Positions 7,058-14,678 of a DNA stretch of 58,938 nt are shown one piece after another; within the stretch, counting starts at the first letter, position 1, and every line of letters starts with the position of its first letter. Source of the stretch: Candidatus Falkowbacteria bacterium (GTDB taxonomy: Bacteria; Patescibacteriota; Patescibacteriia; Patescibacteriales; GWE2-39-37); assembly GCA_037137775.1 (NCBI GenBank), contig JBAXJQ010000004.1:1-58938 (forward strand). The letters are read 5' to 3'. The position numbers were made by a program, and so were the translations under genes. Below the pieces are notes generated by a model. That model saw only the letters and a program-made list of their open reading frames with translations, searched no databases and had not been told where the DNA came from.

Positions 7058-7082
7058 AACCAGGCACTTGGCCTGGTTTTTT
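7058..7082 (+). terminator. Intrinsic terminator after nfo
   Basis: AACCAGGC-ACTTG-GCCTGGTT + TTTT. Confidence 0.7.
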
Positions 7083-7104
7083 AACTAGGGTTAGATAAAT
7101 TTGT

Positions 7105-7133
7105 TTGACATTTTTAACAATCTGTGCTATAAA
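7105..7133 (+). promoter_or_regulatory. Sigma70-type promoter of the four-gene operon
   Basis: TTGACA-17 nt-TATAAA with extended -10 TG. Confidence 0.75.
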
Positions 7134-7179
7134 AACAAGCTGCACTTTGATAATTTTAACAAGAAAGGAAATAGAAGTC

Positions 7180-7461
7180 ATGGCAAATTATTACCATGTT
7201 TTAGGCGTGCGAAAAAACGCCACGGAAGAAGAAATTAAGTCGGCATATCGCCAGAAAGCAACCAATCATCACCCAGACATGGGAAAGGAGGGAGAGCAGT
7301 TTAAGGAGATAGCGGAAGCCAACGCGGTGTTATCCGACCAGGAAAAACGGAAGGAGCATGACCGCGGCTTGGCCACAGAAACTACTGCGAACGCGTATGC
7401 GACCGCACACCATCTTGTCAAGGAATTCCTTGACGCAACCAGAAAAGGAGAGATCTCATGA
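7180..7461 (+). CDS. atcJ: Short J-domain co-chaperone, AtcJ-like
   Basis: NYYHVLGV...[17 protein letters not shown]...VLSDQEKR (HPD motif). 93 aa with a short C-terminal helix, AAGGA upstream. The J-domain is secure. The atcJ name rests on operon context. Confidence 0.7.
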
Positions 7462-8003
7462 AGAAAAAGATTGTTGTTACTGGTCCCGTTGCTCTGCTGT
7501 ACCACGAACTCCGCTGTGAGCTCCACGACGTTGTGGAGGGTGGCATGTTGGTCAATGCTTTCGGCGCGTCTCATCGCGCCGGTATTTTTACCCCAGCATG
7601 TGCAGACTTTTACCACGACCAACCGGTTTTGGTGGCGATCGCACTGTTGGATCAGGTGGTGCTCTGTAATGAGGCGCACGAAATGCGCAATTTGTTAATA
7701 TTGGCGGAAACGCCTACGTTTTCGCAACTTCGCAATCTCATTAAGCCCACTGACGTTGGTGAAAAAGTCTTTGACGTTTTATCTGGGGGTGAGGTGCTGG
7801 CACGGGCTATGCTTCTGCTGGCATTGTGCCGGTTGGAAGAATGGGGCGAGATTGTCGTTGATCTTCGGTTGGACGAGCGGTTGTCCGGTGAGATAATTCA
7901 AGATACAATCTTGAAGAATTTGACCGATGACGAAAGTGCAGTTAACAACATGGCAGCGGCTGGATCTGATCTGGCCGATCACCACGATGGAGGTGGACGA
8001 TGA
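7458..8003 (+). CDS. atcA: AtcA-like protein
   Basis: Overlaps the J-protein stop (ATGA), [15 protein letters not shown] segment and acidic C-terminus ending AAGSDLA resemble recalled proteobacterial AtcA (not database-checked). Confidence 0.55.
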
Positions 8004-8692
8004 GTTTACCAATTTTTATTACCCAGGTGAAGAGCCTGGTTGCCAGCGGTCTGTTGGTCGATGCGGAAAAAGCTTTGCTGATGATGGCGGAAGAGTACGG
8101 CGAAGCTGCTGTACGCGACCTCGCCACGCGCGAGCCCGCTCAAACCTTCGCGTCCCTGATCGGTGCCAGTAACGGCAACGACGTACCGGCTATGGCATTC
8201 TACATGCCACCGGAGAAATATGTCGAAGCATCGCTGCTGGCAATGAGTCAGTATTTCCTCGAGCCCGGACGTTCCGAGCGGGAAGTAATGCTTCGTGCCC
8301 GAGATATCTTTTCCGGCGTGGTCTTCGGTTATTTACCGGAAGAGCGCAAAGAAGAACTTCTGCGCGCCTTTGCTGCGGATGATGGCGGGTTGCTTATCCT
8401 TCTTTTGGCAGCCTATGACTGTCAAGATGATGAGCAGAACCATGAGTATGCCGACCTGCCGCTTATCAGAGATGACAATCCCTTCGCGGTCATGGCAGCG
8501 CTTAAGCATTACCACCTCTACGATGCCATCATCAGCATCGAGGCGGTATTGTTTCAGGAGCTTGTACCGACCATCACTGCCATCGCGCATGAGATTGTAC
8601 ACGTGGTCGAAGAATTGACCAGAGGGCAAGCCCCAACGCCGGCGGAACATCGGTCAAGCATTTTTATGCCGACCAGACAACTTGCCGCCTAA
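8000..8692 (+). CDS. atcB: AtcB-like protein
   Basis: ATGA overlap, GGAGG SD. N-terminus LPIFITQVKSLVASGLLVDAEKALLMMAEEYGEAA resembles recalled AtcB N-termini (not database-checked). Confidence 0.6.
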   Translation: MSLPIFITQVKSLVASGLLVDAEKALLMMAEEYGEAAVRDLATREPAQTFASLIGASNGNDVPAMAFYMPPEKYVEASLLAMSQYFLEPGRSEREVMLRARDIFSGVVFGYLPEERKEELLRAFAADDGGLLILLLAAYDCQDDEQNHEYADLPLIRDDNPFAVMAALKHYHLYDAIISIEAVLFQELVPTITAIAHEIVHVVEELTRGQAPTPAEHRSSIFMPTRQLAA

Positions 8693-8711
8693 TTGCGGCA
8701 CGGAGGAACCC

Positions 8712-10130
8712 ATGGGCGGCACAATCGCAATCCAAGACCCCCGCCCGAATTTGATCGTCGCTCTTGAGTATGGCCAGAAAACCGGCCTGCTCAAGAGTGA
8801 TTTTTATCAATCGGCGGAAGATGACTTGGTTAGCATTGTTATCGAGCTGACCAAGATGTTTCATCAACCCGGCCTCGTGAATAGTTATTACGTGGCCTTA
8901 CACGAGGCAGTAGGTCTTATCAGTCTGGTGTTGGTCCACTATTGTGGCCAAGACCAGGCCAAGGCATTCGCCATGATAAGCGAGTACGGTTTGGTCGAGC
9001 TCTTCGCCAATGGCTGGGAGTTCATCGCCAAGCTGGAAAACACAAAACCAGAACAACAGAAATTGCTGGCCGCCCTCGCTTATGAGCCACATGTTCACTG
9101 GCAGGGGTGGTCGCAATACCAGCATCTGGCATTTCGAAAGCAAACACAGTCGCGTCAGGTAGCGTTCAGACGACAGCTGTGGACTAAGTGCTATAAGCGC
9201 AACTTGACCGAGCAGGGATATCGAACTTTGCTTTTGTCTTTGCGCTATCTCGGTGTTGCCTTGCCGCAACCTTTGGACGGTCAAACGTTGGTGGTAATCA
9301 TTGACGCCATTCAGCGTCAGGCAGTCCATCGAATTGAGGACATTGCCAAAAGGTTATTCGGCCTAGATGAAGAGGCTAGAAAACTGTTGTCTGTGGATAT
9401 GGCAGGGTTGTTATTTCCTGCCATTAATCCAATCGAGGTGGTAGCAAAAACCGATGTATCAGCTGCGATGATGGCATTAACCACTCAATTTGATTTTTAC
9501 ATCGATGCGAGTGCTATGGAACACGCCGTTAAGACGTTTCAGCTCGAAGAGCAATTGAAGTGTCTGGGTAAGTCAGAGCTATTTGAGCGCATCAGCGCTT
9601 TTGCTAGCCAACCTCAGCTTCAGACCAAAGCAGTCGAAATTCTGATTGCCAAACACTCGATGGTTTTGTCTGACTGGCTTGATTTGCTCGAGATATTTAC
9701 CAGATGGGAGGATTATTTTCCCTGGAACGAATATCTCAGAACCGATGTGGTTGCTTTACTTCAGCACAAAAATATCAGACAGAATGTGCTGAGGGAGAAA
9801 CTGTCCGTACTCGTTTCGGAGCAGGGTGTGCCAGATGAATGGTTGCCGATTTTTTGGCAGCTCCGTCAACTGTTGGATCGCTATCAAGAAAGAGCGTTGA
9901 TTGGTTGTTTAAACTTTAAACAGCTCAACGCACTTTTTTCCAGCGATACAGCTGGCGACCTTCAGTTGTTGGCGTTATCAGTTGCTGAATTATTTATCGA
10001 ACGGCAACCATCTGATTGGGCGGCACAATTAAAACCGCTCATTGCTCTTTTAGAAAACCAGGTTTCCTGCTACTTTGAATGGCCCGCGTTAAAACGGGCA
10101 ATGCAGTGCAAGAAAGCTGGCAAAAAATGA
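8712..10130 (+). CDS. atcC: AtcC-like helical protein with long C-terminal region
   Basis: GGAGG SD before ATG 8712. IQDPRPNLIVALEYGQKTG...GLISLVL resembles recalled AtcC N-termini (not database-checked). Confidence 0.55.
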   Translation: MGGTIAIQDPRPNLIVALEYGQKTGLLKSDFYQSAEDDLVSIVIELTKMFHQPGLVNSYYVALHEAVGLISLVLVHYCGQDQAKAFAMISEYGLVELFANGWEFIAKLENTKPEQQKLLAALAYEPHVHWQGWSQYQHLAFRKQTQSRQVAFRRQLWTKCYKRNLTEQGYRTLLLSLRYLGVALPQPLDGQTLVVIIDAIQRQAVHRIEDIAKRLFGLDEEARKLLSVDMAGLLFPAINPIEVVAKTDVSAAMMALTTQFDFYIDASAMEHAVKTFQLEEQLKCLGKSELFERISAFASQPQLQTKAVEILIAKHSMVLSDWLDLLEIFTRWEDYFPWNEYLRTDVVALLQHKNIRQNVLREKLSVLVSEQGVPDEWLPIFWQLRQLLDRYQERALIGCLNFKQLNALFSSDTAGDLQLLALSVAELFIERQPSDWAAQLKPLIALLENQVSCYFEWPALKRAMQCKKAGKK

Positions 10131-10131
10131 C

Positions 10132-10163
10132 ACGGCGAGGCTAAACACCTCGCCGTTTTTTTT
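10132..10163 (+). terminator. Intrinsic terminator closing the four-gene operon
   Basis: ACGGCGAGG-CTAAACA-CCTCGCCGT + T-run. Confidence 0.85.
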
Positions 10164-12282
10164 ATTGTAATTGGATTACTTCAATCTGGCCATCTGTTTG
10201 CCAGGTTGGGTTTGATATTTTTTGTGGTGAATCATACAGCCACATCGCTAACAGAGCATTACGGAATGCTGGTGTTTGACGGAGATCGGTAACCAGTTGT
10301 TGGCGCGCTTTATTTAAATCTGGATCAATTTTTTTTGCCAATAACCAATTGCGCACGCCAAGATCAAGACTAACCGCGCCAGCATAGACTTGGTCACCAT
10401 TGGTCGTGGTGATGTTCGTTTGCCAAAATTTTGCTTGCCAGCGGCTTTGGCGGCGGGTACCAGTGTGGCGAGTGAAGCCGAAGTCGTTAGTCTGGACACG
10501 CCAATAGGATGCGGTTAACGGAGCCTCAATATACGGTTTTTGAGTTACAAAATCAAAGGCGCTGGTAAAGAGTGTGCTGAGTGAGGGTTGATTAGTCACT
10601 TGCCAGCCAGCCGTTGTCATAACTTTTTTAAGGTTAGTATTTTTGGAAACAATCAGCATGACATTAAGTGGTTGTTCAATATCACCATTTGTTTTTTCAA
10701 TATAGCGAGGCAGTTGTCGTTCGGACCACTCGAGCAGCGGTTCGTTGCTTGTAATGACGGGCAGGGGATTAAAGCGGGCAAATGTAATTTTTCTTTGATG
10801 CAACCACCAATCAGCAGAAAAATCTGTTAGCGCGAAAATAATTAGGGTGCCAGCTATAAGATGTTTAAAAAATAAAGAGTATTTTTTCTTTTGAATCGGG
10901 TGATTTTTTAAATACCATTCATTTACGCTTATGCCTACAATTAACCAGACGGCACCAAGGACATAGCCTGTTAACACGTCACTTAAATAGTGAACACCCA
11001 AATATAAACGACTGAAGCCGATTAACACGACAAAGGCAATCCAAATAAAAAGCCAGTTGATTTTTTTACGCCACTCGGTTTGTTGGCGAAGAAAATAGTA
11101 GAGAAAAAAGCCATAAAAAGCAATAACCACCGTGGCATGACCACTGGGAAAGGAAAAAAGTGATTCTTGATAAGCACCAGAAAGTGGGCGTGGTCGAGCG
11201 GTAATCATTTTACCAAGATAGGTAAGCAGGGTACTGCCGCCAAGGCTTACCCACAGGCCGATTAAGTATGAACGGTTGCGCGTTACCAGCCAGAAGGCTG
11301 ACAATAGCAAGGCAAAAACAATAACAACCTCGGGCTTGGCGAGACTAGAAATAAAGAAAAATAGTTTTAACAGAGCAGGGTGGCGTAAGCCATTTAGCCA
11401 GAGATTAAATGAGTTGTCGATTTGCACAATCCATTCTTGATTTAAGACACCTTCAACCAAGCCAGTGAGCAGAGAGATTAAATAGATGAGCGTTAGGGTT
11501 ATTAGCGTCGTAGGTAAGCCGGAAAATTTTTGGCGGGTCAGACGTTGGTAGAGCCAAGCAATAAAGTGGGGATGAGCTTTGACAAAACGTGTCACTTTAG
11601 GCAGATGGGCAATTTTTTCGGTTCTATTTTTGAGTACCGCATTAAGCGCTTGCCAGAATTCCAAACCGCGTCGCAAAATTAACCATTTAATCAGATAGAG
11701 CAAGCCAAAAAAGATAACAAAGAAGATGATGGCTTTTTCAAAACGATTAGCCCAGAATTCAACCGAGTTTAAGGCTTGACCAAAAAAATAGCCAAGGCTT
11801 AGATGAATGGCGGTCCAGCTGACAACACTGATAATATCAAGGGTTAAAAATCGGAGCACTGGCATATTAACCAAGCCGGCAATAAAAGCGGTGAAGGGAC
11901 GAACAAAACCAATATAGCGACCAAAAATTACGCTCTTGTTGCCATGACGCTCAAAAAAGGCTTGGCCTTTTTCCAAGTGAGCAGCGCGGAAAAACGTGTT
12001 TTCTGGCTTAAACCAGCCAACACCACGTTTGCCCAGGTAATAACTGACTAAATCGCCACAAACAAAACCAAGCGAGCTAACAAACAGTACATCACCGATA
12101 TCAAGCGCTCCTTGGGCGGCCAGTGCACCGAATAAAAGCGCCAAAATCGCACCAGGCACAATTAGGCCAACGAGCACAAGTGACTCACCAAAGAAAATGG
12201 CAAAAATCAGCCAATAGCTCCACGCACCAAGGTTTTGGATATTGGGAACAAGTTGGGATAAAAATGAATTTAGCATATTCAT
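10162..12282 (-). CDS. DedA + PAP2 phosphatase + LssY-like C-terminal fusion
   Basis: ESLVLVGLIVPG/GRYIGFVR (DedA), KMITARPRP/SFPSGHA/SRLYLGVHYLSDV (PAP2), C-terminal QPLNV...IDPDLNKARQ...TDG. Confidence 0.88.
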   Translation of the reverse strand: MNMLNSFLSQLVPNIQNLGAWSYWLIFAIFFGESLVLVGLIVPGAILALLFGALAAQGALDIGDVLFVSSLGFVCGDLVSYYLGKRGVGWFKPENTFFRAAHLEKGQAFFERHGNKSVIFGRYIGFVRPFTAFIAGLVNMPVLRFLTLDIISVVSWTAIHLSLGYFFGQALNSVEFWANRFEKAIIFFVIFFGLLYLIKWLILRRGLEFWQALNAVLKNRTEKIAHLPKVTRFVKAHPHFIAWLYQRLTRQKFSGLPTTLITLTLIYLISLLTGLVEGVLNQEWIVQIDNSFNLWLNGLRHPALLKLFFFISSLAKPEVVIVFALLLSAFWLVTRNRSYLIGLWVSLGGSTLLTYLGKMITARPRPLSGAYQESLFSFPSGHATVVIAFYGFFLYYFLRQQTEWRKKINWLFIWIAFVVLIGFSRLYLGVHYLSDVLTGYVLGAVWLIVGISVNEWYLKNHPIQKKKYSLFFKHLIAGTLIIFALTDFSADWWLHQRKITFARFNPLPVITSNEPLLEWSERQLPRYIEKTNGDIEQPLNVMLIVSKNTNLKKVMTTAGWQVTNQPSLSTLFTSAFDFVTQKPYIEAPLTASYWRVQTNDFGFTRHTGTRRQSRWQAKFWQTNITTTNGDQVYAGAVSLDLGVRNWLLAKKIDPDLNKARQQLVTDLRQTPAFRNALLAMWLYDSPQKISNPTWQTDGQIEVIQLQ

Positions 12283-12393
12283 TATTATAGCGGTAAATCA
12301 AAAAAAGCCAAAGCAGCAAATTAATATGTAAATATTTAATCTCGAGGTTTTTAGCATTACCTATATATAGCTCTAATAAATTTTTAAAAAATT

Positions 12394-12423
12394 AAAAACC
12401 TGACAGTGGATTGTCAGGTTTTT
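12394..12423 (-). terminator. Intrinsic (bidirectional-type) terminator
   Basis: AAAAACCTGACA-GTGGAT-TGTCAGGTTTTT. Confidence 0.75.
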
Positions 12424-12441
12424 ATATTGAAATGTAAAAAA

Positions 12442-12894
12442 TTATTCTCGTATTTTTTTCGCTAGTGCGGCTAATTTTTCATCATCAGCTCGTTCAAAGT
12501 CATGGGAGGAGATGTAGCCATCATATTTTTCAAAGTAGACTCGATTATTTGATTTGATCGGCTTCCATTCCGGAATATTCGTGCCGTGCATCGGAAACAA
12601 TTTAGCGTGAAGGTGATCAACTCCGAAGCCTTCGAAGATAAAACCACAACGTCCGACATCGTTTAATTTAGCATCTAGTAATTTGCCGACTTTCTTTGAT
12701 GCCAGCGTTAGTTCGCACAAGACTTCATCTGAAGCATTAAAGGCGTAGCTGGGGTAATGTTTTTTAGGTATAACAACGGAAAAGCCTTCAGTGTTCGGAA
12801 AAATGGATAAAAAGGCGATGTGATTGTTATCCTCCCAGATTTTATGACAAGGCGCTTCCCCCTTAACGATTTTACAAAAAATGCAGTCTTCCAT
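12442..12894 (-). CDS. HIT family nucleotide hydrolase
   Basis: DCIFCKIV, IPKKH, GVDHLHAKLFP (variant HIT motif). Confidence 0.9.
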   Translation of the reverse strand: MEDCIFCKIVKGEAPCHKIWEDNNHIAFLSIFPNTEGFSVVIPKKHYPSYAFNASDEVLCELTLASKKVGKLLDAKLNDVGRCGFIFEGFGVDHLHAKLFPMHGTNIPEWKPIKSNNRVYFEKYDGYISSHDFERADDEKLAALAKKIRE

Positions 12895-13011
12895 ATAGTT
12901 AATTAATTTTAATAATTAATATTATATTATATAAAACGTAATAAATAAACTAGATTTTAATATTACCCGAAAAAATACAAATTGCAAAGAAACTAAATTT
13001 TTGTAGAATTA

Positions 13012-13037
13012 AAAAAAGCCCTTGACGGGGCTTTTTT
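13012..13037 (-). terminator. Terminator after rpmB
   Basis: AAAAAAGCCC-TTGACG-GGGCTTTTTT. Confidence 0.75.
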
Positions 13038-13047
13038 AGAGAAGTAG

Positions 13048-13227
13048 TTATGCTTTGGAGATTTTGGCTAGAGTTCTAATACAGCTGGTACAGATTTTTA
13101 TCTTGCCACCGGACACTTTTTTGCTTTGCAAATTAATGTGCTGGCGCTTGGTTGTTTTGATATTGGAGTGTGATCGTGAAGCGTCTTTGGTTGCGCCCCG
13201 GTTGCATGCGTCGCATCTTAATGCCAT
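13048..13227 (-). CDS. rpmB: 50S ribosomal protein bL28 (missed by ORF track)
   Basis: Manual translation: MALRCDACNRGATKDASRSHSNIKTTKRQHINLQSKKVSGGKIKICTSCIRTLAKISKA (SHS..NLQ..CTSCIRT). Confidence 0.93.
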   Translation of the reverse strand: MALRCDACNRGATKDASRSHSNIKTTKRQHINLQSKKVSGGKIKICTSCIRTLAKISKA

Positions 13228-13356
13228 ATTGGTCTAAAATTAAATAATCAGTTGATTGCAATCAGGCGCAGAGCCAGGCAATATGGGAGCATCATAGCAC
13301 AAACGTTTGCTTTTGGCAAGATTGATGATATGATAAACAAATAAACAAAAATCAAT

Positions 13357-14055
13357 ATGATAGTTATCACCATCTTATTCGTTTTAGCCTTGCTGGGCTC
13401 AGCTATTTTTCATGAATATGCTCATGGCTTGATGGCTAAATATTTGGGCGATCATACGGCCGAGGATGCTGGCCGCTTAACCCTTAACCCCATACCACAT
13501 CTTGATCCGATTGGCTCGGTGTTACTCCCCTTGATCATGGTTTTGTCTAATACTGGCTTTTTTTTCGCTTGGGCCAAGCCTGTGCCGTATAATCCGTATA
13601 ATTTACGGGATCAAAAATTTGGTGATTTAAAAGTTGCGTTAGCTGGTCCAGGCTCTAATTTGATATTAGCCATTTTTTTTGGCATGATGACTCGGCTTAT
13701 TCCACTTTCAACCGGGGAAAAGATGGACATGGCGATGAACTTTTTCTCCAACAATTATGACGCCTTGTCTAGTCAATTGGCTGGTTCTTTTTCAGCTAGC
13801 CTTTTAGCCTTGTCTCTAGTGTTTTGTTTTGTTAATTTAAGCTTGATGGTTTTTAATCTGGTGCCAATTCCACCTCTCGATGGTTCTAAGATTTTGCTAA
13901 CTTTTCTATCAGCACGAGGACGAATGCTCTATCATCAATACAGTATGTATGGGTTTATTGTTTTATTTGGCTTGATCTTTTTAGGTGCTTTTAATTTGCT
14001 TGTTTACCCAATTTTATATCTTTTTTCTCTGCTTTCAGGCCTATCATTTTTTTAG
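13357..14055 (+). CDS. Site-2 protease (peptidase M50)
   Basis: HEYAH, GRLTLNP, AGPGSN, FNLVPIPPLDG. Confidence 0.92.
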   Translation: MIVITILFVLALLGSAIFHEYAHGLMAKYLGDHTAEDAGRLTLNPIPHLDPIGSVLLPLIMVLSNTGFFFAWAKPVPYNPYNLRDQKFGDLKVALAGPGSNLILAIFFGMMTRLIPLSTGEKMDMAMNFFSNNYDALSSQLAGSFSASLLALSLVFCFVNLSLMVFNLVPIPPLDGSKILLTFLSARGRMLYHQYSMYGFIVLFGLIFLGAFNLLVYPILYLFSLLSGLSFF

Positions 14056-14067
14056 AAAATAGCAGTG

Positions 14068-14096
14068 TTGACATTTTATAGCCAAATTGCTACAGT
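14068..14096 (+). promoter_or_regulatory. Sigma70-type promoter of the str operon
   Basis: TTGACA-17 nt-TACAGT with extended -10 TG. Confidence 0.7.
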
Positions 14097-14246
14097 ATGA
14101 TAGCCTTTTAGAAATAACCGGCAAGCTCCTTTCGGGGCTTTATTTTAGTATTATTTAAGTAATTACCGTAATCCATCTTGATTGTCTGATTCTTTGTATC
14201 AGTTACACGTGGCGTGGCTGATCGGATAGGGCAGGGATGACCAAGT

Positions 14247-14678
14247 ATGCCGACAATTAACCAATTGGTCCGCAAAGGCCGAACTTTGCAAAAAACGAAG
14301 AGCAAAAGTCCGGCTATGCAATCGACCTTAGATACCTTGCATCGCAAGCGAACTACCTTGCCACGCGGCGCCGCCTTTAAGCGCGGTGTTTGTTTGAAAG
14401 TTACTACTACAACGCCAAAGAAACCAAACTCGGCGTTACGAAAAATCGCCCGTGTCCGTTTGTCGAACGGCATGGAAGTTACCGCTTATATTCCTGGTGT
14501 TGGCCACAATTTACAAGAACATTCCGTGGTGCTCATTAAGGGTGGCAAAACCAAAGATTTACCAGGTGTTCGCTATAAGATTGTGCGTGGTGTTTACGAC
14601 ACCCAGGGCGTTGCCAATCGCAAACAGTCCCGTTCACTCTATGGCGCTAAACGACCTAAGGCAGCCGCCGCTAAGTAA
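14247..14678 (+). CDS. rpsL: 30S ribosomal protein uS12
   Basis: [28 protein letters not shown]. Confidence 0.99.

Follow-up and report, generated by a model that had tools for sequence, protein, structure and literature searches.

Main

The closest described relative of the system considered here is AtcJABC of Shewanella oneidensis, represented by the NCBIfam models NF050028 (AtcJ), NF047888 (AtcA), NF047889 (AtcB) and NF047890 (AtcC) and described by Maillot et al. 2019 (PMC6715715). According to a preprint (10.64898/2026.09.07.749886), AtcB binds a basic helix of RpoC through two aspartates, D37 and D60; both are kept in all AtcB proteins selected for that study, and the fit between AtcB and the polymerase is lineage-specific. 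AtcJ binds AtcC through a PX7W motif; binding persists in some members whose motif is degenerate or lacking, as in Solidesulfovibrio, where an AtcJ that lacks it still binds AtcC, and the target genes and mechanism of Atc are still unknown (10.64898/2026.09.07.749886). Of six natural AtcB proteins, three fail to bind the E. coli polymerase. Here we analyse a four-gene operon (positions 7180–10130, forward strand) in a window of 58,938 nucleotides (nt), contig JBAXJQ010000004.1 of a Candidatus Falkowbacteria bacterium (assembly GCA_037137775.1), a member of the Patescibacteria or candidate phyla radiation (CPR). The operon is almost certainly homologous to Atc; that it is canonical in function we hold with moderate confidence. 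At roughly even odds (about 0.5), we read it as a very divergent atcJABC relative that was likely gained sideways and, by analogy with Shewanella, would still form a DnaK-gated AtcJ–AtcC–AtcB module with a weakened or re-tuned grip on RNA polymerase. The Atc system itself has already been published; what is distinctive here is the E35/N58 pair in AtcB together with an AtcJ that lacks PX7W.

Like its Shewanella counterpart, the operon consists of four co-oriented genes led by an HPD-containing J-domain protein of about 93 amino acids (aa), with genes 1–3 of similar size, an acidic tail on gene 2, an AtcB fold and a homologous AtcC N-terminal region. The order is that of atcJABC, as the sequence-only reading of this DNA had proposed, with an AtcA-sized gene in position 2. 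In contrast to Shewanella, the window AtcB and AtcC are 14–20% identical to the gammaproteobacterial proteins and reach no model cut-off, E35/N58 stand in place of D37/D60, PX7W is missing, AtcA is not significantly matched, AtcC has 472 aa rather than 298, and the host is a 1.2-Mb Patescibacterium. An AtcJ without PX7W and an AtcC longer than that of Shewanella are also features of the preprint's systems from outside the Beta- and Gammaproteobacteria, whereas the AtcB proteins selected there, compared by description, keep both aspartates and the window AtcB has neither. Closer to hand are six other CPR or CPR-like loci with J-A-B-C order (G040, G540, L008, G1433, G1667 and G1576), which have the same genes, a GC content above that of their flanks and a patchy distribution. 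Unlike the window operon, all six have PX7W and the second aspartate, five have both aspartates, and the G040 A, B and C proteins each match NCBIfam models (expectation value (E) 1e-12 to 1e-15), which the window A and B do not.

Homology of the four proteins

Gene 4 (8712–10130, forward strand, 472 aa) matches NF047890 over residues 12–159 at E 5e-8, scoring 32.8 bits where the model cut-off is 370. Our own AtcC profiles, built without window sequences, find it at E 1e-11 to 1e-19, and a profile of gammaproteobacterial AtcC only finds it at E 1.5e-11. A phmmer search of gene 4 against 1.84 billion representatives returned seven other proteins, six of which match NF047890; word-based protein searches returned no relative of gene 4, and a search of PDB sequences with the AtcC profile gave a best E of 0.36. 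The model and profile matches identify gene 4 as a homologue of AtcC, comprising the AtcC N-terminal region and a long C-terminal extension that is partly common to protein P0006. Because P0006 is only 28% identical to gene 4 over 399 columns, the lineage that the two form is old.

Separately, the AtcC N-terminal regions of P0011, P0013, P0008 and L078:2196-3113, four of the eight AtcC proteins tested, match approximately positions 294–367 of DUF6178 (PF19676; E 9e-7 to 2e-4). One AtcB cluster of the structure Atlas carries PF19676 on 11% of its members, and none of eight AtcB proteins tested matched it. DUF6178 may be related to Atc proteins, possibly as a fusion of AtcB-like and AtcC-like parts.

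Gene 3 (8000–8692, forward strand, 230 aa, predicted to be all-helical) was ranked first of the 2,318 open reading frames (ORFs) of the genome by AtcB profiles built without window sequences from 8, 11 and 25 proteins (E 8e-5 to 3e-3), with a score that none of 2,000 shuffles reached. In the ESM Atlas of predicted structures, its three top clusters had template-modelling (TM) scores of 0.61–0.65, two of them carrying AtcB Pfam families, and the next row scored 0.37. Word-based protein searches found one relative for gene 3, and P0005, an AtcB, is 85% identical to it and intact over 202 residues. AlphaFold, given an alignment of 18 rows, returned an all-helical model, with a predicted local distance difference test (pLDDT) of 71 and a predicted TM score (pTM) of 0.74; it is not independent evidence, because the alignment consisted of AtcB proteins. 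Pairwise BLAST of gene 3 against the G040 AtcB showed no similarity, Foldseek of the model returned nothing at E ≤ 0.001, and a search of PDB sequences with the AtcB profile gave a best E of 0.028. Profile and predicted structure identify gene 3 as a homologue of AtcB.

Gene 1 (7180–7461, forward strand, 93 aa) is the minimal HPD J-domain protein noted from the sequence: it matches the Pfam DnaJ family PF00226 (E 2.6e-21) over residues 3–61, with HPD at 31–33, followed by a C-terminal tail. The match to NF050028 (E 4.7e-10) lies under the cut-off and is not diagnostic, because generic DnaJ models score better. Gene 1 has K26 and N48 at two near-invariant J-domain columns, where 90% or more of the aligned proteins have L and Y.

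Gene 2 (7458–8003, forward strand, 181 aa) is called AtcA by position only; it is a likely AtcA homologue by sequence, not a significant one. Residues 54–125 align with the AtcA core in hhalign at E 0.03 and a probability of 1.7%, gene 2 is not the best genome match in five of six AtcA profiles, and 5–21 of 2,000 shuffles equal its score. NF047888 has no match anywhere in the host genome, the DP-x-x-P segment of AtcA is not recognisable in gene 2, and pairwise BLAST against the G040 AtcA showed no similarity. The structure Atlas gave no usable match for gene 2 (query model pTM 0.33), and an AlphaFold model from a two-row alignment was unusable (pLDDT 39.5). The protein ends in an acidic C-terminal tail with ten D/E in the last 45 residues and would likely represent a fast-evolving, dispensable AtcA. 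Pfam offered no family at useful E-values for genes 2–4. The proposal that the three unknown proteins resemble AtcA, AtcB and AtcC was thus borne out in part: the profile and structure comparison with Atc proteins that came with it found similarity for gene 3 (structure and profile) and gene 4 (NF047890 and profiles), whereas gene 2 gave no significant profile or structure match to AtcA.

Proposed mechanism

By analogy with Shewanella, AtcJ would recruit DnaK through its HPD motif, and its helical tail, although the usual tryptophan is missing, would dock on the N-terminal domain of AtcC, the scaffold that would hold AtcB; AtcB would touch the basic RpoC helix through E35, and perhaps D61; and DnaK would limit the amount of AtcB that stays on the polymerase. 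This mechanism is supported by the presence of the chaperone and of the target, and by intact frames and signals. In the host genome (1.21 Mb, 96.7% complete), dnaK, dnaJ and grpE are all present, a single J-domain protein was found besides gene 1, and RpoC retains a basic helix where it aligns with the basic helix of the Aeromonas protein. Over about 2.95 kb the operon is free of stops and frameshifts, with gene coupling, Shine–Dalgarno (SD) sites, promoter and terminators all preserved. P0005 has the same E35/N58 pair, and the preprint's findings that an AtcJ without PX7W still binds AtcC and that the AtcB–polymerase fit varies by lineage also speak for this reading.

Several observations speak against this reading. 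None of the NCBIfam Atc models reaches its cut-off; genes 2 and 3 are not matched at all by the models for AtcA and AtcB, the latter NF047889; for gene 2, homology to AtcA falls short of significance. The canonical D37 and D60 correspond, in ungapped register, to E35 and N58 of gene 3. In an alignment of 43 AtcB proteins, 41 lie outside the gene 3/P0005 lineage (35 gammaproteobacterial, many of them close kin, and 6 CPR-type); the first site is D in 40 of these (5 of 6 CPR-type) and the second in all 41 (6 of 6), which makes N58 a real departure. AtcB variants with both aspartates changed to alanine lose polymerase binding in Shewanella, Collimonas and Janthinobacterium, and they lose toxicity too (10.64898/2026.09.07.749886). 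In the AtcJ alignment, neither the P nor the W of PX7W is found in register in the gene 1 tail, whereas the motif occurs in every one of the 19 other rows. As to the gain, GC content exceeds that of the flanks by 2–10 points in each of the other six CPR-type operons, including those of family f183, two of which lie beside dnaX and look inherited. The GC excess therefore does not date the gain, and we rejected it as proof, by itself, of recent transfer.

Because polymerase- and partner-binding residues are changed, the target of the window AtcB may be weakened or different, and the 'transcription brake' of the sequence-only reading is less secure than proposed, with both polymerase-binding aspartates altered and PX7W gone. 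An E at the first site also occurs in the AtcB of L008, the one of the six other loci that lies on a metagenome contig; its AtcC clusters with a protein labelled Patescibacteria. D61 shares a predicted loop (residues 56–64) with N58, three residues away, and might, as a guess from the model, substitute for the lost aspartate. A cold role of the window operon in its uncultured host is unproven, and the dormancy role suggested in the sequence-only reading is putative.

The RpoC of the host (G000:C16:24809-27862, L082) and those of G003 and G040 carry an insertion of about 80 residues that Aeromonas lacks; it lies shortly upstream of the basic helix and could affect access of AtcB to that helix.

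Operon layout and signals

The ORF coordinates and overlaps are those of the four-gene, co-oriented unit described from the letters: genes 1 and 2 and genes 2 and 3 overlap as ATGA, and 19 nt separate genes 3 and 4. SD-like purine runs accompany all four starts (aaaggaaa, aggag, ggagg and ggagga), in line with the SD sites claimed earlier, and the upstream terminator, consensus promoter and downstream terminator claimed with them were found as well, as terminator-like and promoter-like sites. A terminator-like hairpin 3′ of nfo (7058–7078, forward strand) sets nfo apart from the operon. A predicted sigma-70-type promoter-like site (7105–7133, forward strand) was read from the sequence, with TTGACA at 7105–7110, a 17-nt spacer and TG-n-TATAAA whose −10 box lies at 7128–7133; it is missing from the scanner list because the scanner accepts only T as the final −10 base. 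A two-way terminator-like hairpin (10132–10156, both strands) separates the operon from the convergent dedA/PAP2 gene; it came up in the terminator scan and also, as an inverted repeat, in the repeat search. The terminator scan returned 11 terminator-like sites against 5.0 ± 2.2 in shuffles.

A 17-nt direct repeat (7104–7120 and 7146–7162, 88% alike and 42 nt apart) covers the −35 box and the leader; it could be an operator or chance.

Five sequencing runs listed for this DNA are of lake or fresh water DNA, with no RNA run among them; three contain half or nearly half of its words, and one is possibly the source. No variant sites are listed in the contigs of runs X2–X5.

Distribution and origin

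The survey across Patescibacteria that had been suggested along with the Atc proposal found J-A-B-C together in the six loci named above, so that Atc in CPR is patchy and not unique to this host. An order-level scan with the AtcC profile matched 3 of 316 genomes (the host, G000, together with G040 and G540), and a class-level sample 4 of 401 (the host and three of family f183). Within f183, the operon was found in 3 of 12 sampled genomes, in two of them beside dnaX. With the NCBIfam AtcC model, 2 of 401 genomes in a phylum-level sample matched, the second weakly and with a stop. These counts are floors, because first-look searches can miss divergent copies, and they exclude weak AtcC matches in G019 (E 3.9e-4, not recovered in the order profile search) and G300 (E 2.4e-4, with a stop). 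Among sampled genomes of the Aeromonas order, 31 of 251 had an AtcB match; in a 400-genome sample of the Aeromonas class, only the centre genome matched.

Two neighbouring observations arose from the survey. In G1667 (L093:2506-3566), a 90-aa ORF, which we take to be GIY-YIG-like, occurs between dnaX and the atc operon in three near-identical tandem copies spaced by about 394 nt; tRNA-like sequence seems to alternate with them. L007 (NZ_AP026896.1), entered as a plasmid of Aeromonas caviae, is 4.9 Mb long, contains a canonical atcJABC and probably represents a chromosome.

The simpler reading of the origin, judged from sequence comparison, is a likely lineage-specific sideways gain into the slot between nfo and dedA, given an empty site in three same-family genomes and atypical GC and codon use. 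Acquisition from outside, as first suggested from the letters, is in this sense upheld as likely, and the Patescibacteria host assumed then is supported. None of the six same-family genomes searched (74–96% complete) had an Atc match. In three of them (G001, G003 and G005), both flanks lie on one contig without the operon or any Atc profile match: nfo and dedA/PAP2 are 45 nt apart in G003, and in G001 and G005 the slot is occupied by a different small gene. In G004, another gene follows nfo at the contig end. GC richness, earlier asserted without computation, amounts to 50.0% in the operon against 40.3% in the genome, a value reached by 0.23% of 2,198 equal-length segments; GC at third codon positions is 0.53 against 0.37, and codon use places the operon in the lowest 1–4% of 860 genes. 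Neither a direct repeat flanking the cassette nor a terminal inverted repeat stood out at its ends. Trees of AtcB (16 rows) and AtcC (22 rows cut to 200 residues), with a subset of the gammaproteobacterial rows, put the window proteins on long branches, gene 3 on the longest of the AtcB tree, with supported placement only with P0005 and P0006. Long branches meet in these trees, and no donor can be named.

What follows nfo differs among four same-family genomes (L110, L111, L112 and L113), one gene or another or no gene at all, as at a variable insertion site.

The operon could instead have been inherited within Patescibacteria and repeatedly lost, which we consider unlikely, though the strongest of the alternatives. 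It would account for the other CPR genomes that carry the operon (two besides the host among the 316 of the order; in f183, 3 of 12, two beside dnaX) and for the raised GC of every CPR copy, and vertical inheritance has been argued for Proteobacteria (10.64898/2026.09.07.749886). The G540 operon (L050:793-4662) also lies directly upstream of rpsL-rpsG, as the window operon lies 4 kb upstream of rpsL (7180–14678), a broadly common neighbourhood that may reflect old synteny, an insertion hot spot used in both genomes or mere coincidence. However, the 45-nt interval in G003 and the other small genes in G001 and G005 have the appearance of a variable insertion site, and the window proteins do not group with those of G040 or G540 with support, in trees that are largely unresolved. 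Inheritance concerns origin and is compatible with the proposed mechanism.

Alternative functions

Of the alternatives that concern function, re-targeting fares best and is still rather doubtful: AtcJ and AtcC would deliver DnaK to an AtcB that holds a client other than RNA polymerase. All published contact residues have changed at once (E35/N58, PX7W and the unrecognisable AtcA DP-x-x-P), the window branch is the longest in the AtcB tree, the E/N pair is kept in the 85% identical P0005, P0006 has the lineage-specific AtcC extension in common with gene 4, and frames and signals are intact. A candidate client, however, is not encoded nearby, E35 is a conservative change found also in L008, D61 lies three residues from N58, and the basic RpoC helix is kept.

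The changed residues could also mean that an acquired Atc operon is under relaxed selection and drifting to loss of function, which we regard as slightly less probable again. Conserved positions are altered in all four genes, including the two near-invariant J-domain columns; the operon is missing from all six same-family genomes searched; and its codon use is at the low extreme of the genome. Drift fits poorly, however, with about 2.95 kb free of stops and frameshifts and with intact coupling, SD sites, promoter and terminators, and the 85% identical AtcB P0005 is intact over 202 residues while P0006 shows the lineage to be old.

A J-domain system unrelated to Atc (the fallback of the sequence-only reading) or an anti-phage defence system is very improbable, since, although genes 2 and 3 have no pairwise BLAST similarity to the G040 proteins, no NCBIfam cut-off is reached and gene 3 has one weak PADLOC CARF3 match (E 0.0036, 56 residues), independent profile and structure matches of genes 3 and 4 to AtcB and AtcC, in Atc order behind a J-protein, largely refute the former, and the defence role once suggested finds no support in PADLOC 2.0.0, which has no match for three of the four proteins.

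Discussion

The main text of the preprint (10.64898/2026.09.07.749886) has no mention of Patescibacteria, CPR, candidate phyla or Parcubacteria, although its 294-genome table may bear on this. In the literature, we found no other study of Atc in CPR or of an aspartate-less AtcB, with the same proviso about that table, and no paper that combines a J-domain protein, Patescibacteria and DnaK.

The window operon extends the Atc family to ultra-small symbionts. Its natural E/N AtcB and PX7W-less AtcJ make it possible to ask directly whether binding depends on those residues alone and whether the polymerase is the sole client. If re-targeting were true, a dedicated J-protein network would, in nature, have abandoned RNA polymerase for a new client in a CPR cell, its architecture preserved but each of the published contact residues exchanged.

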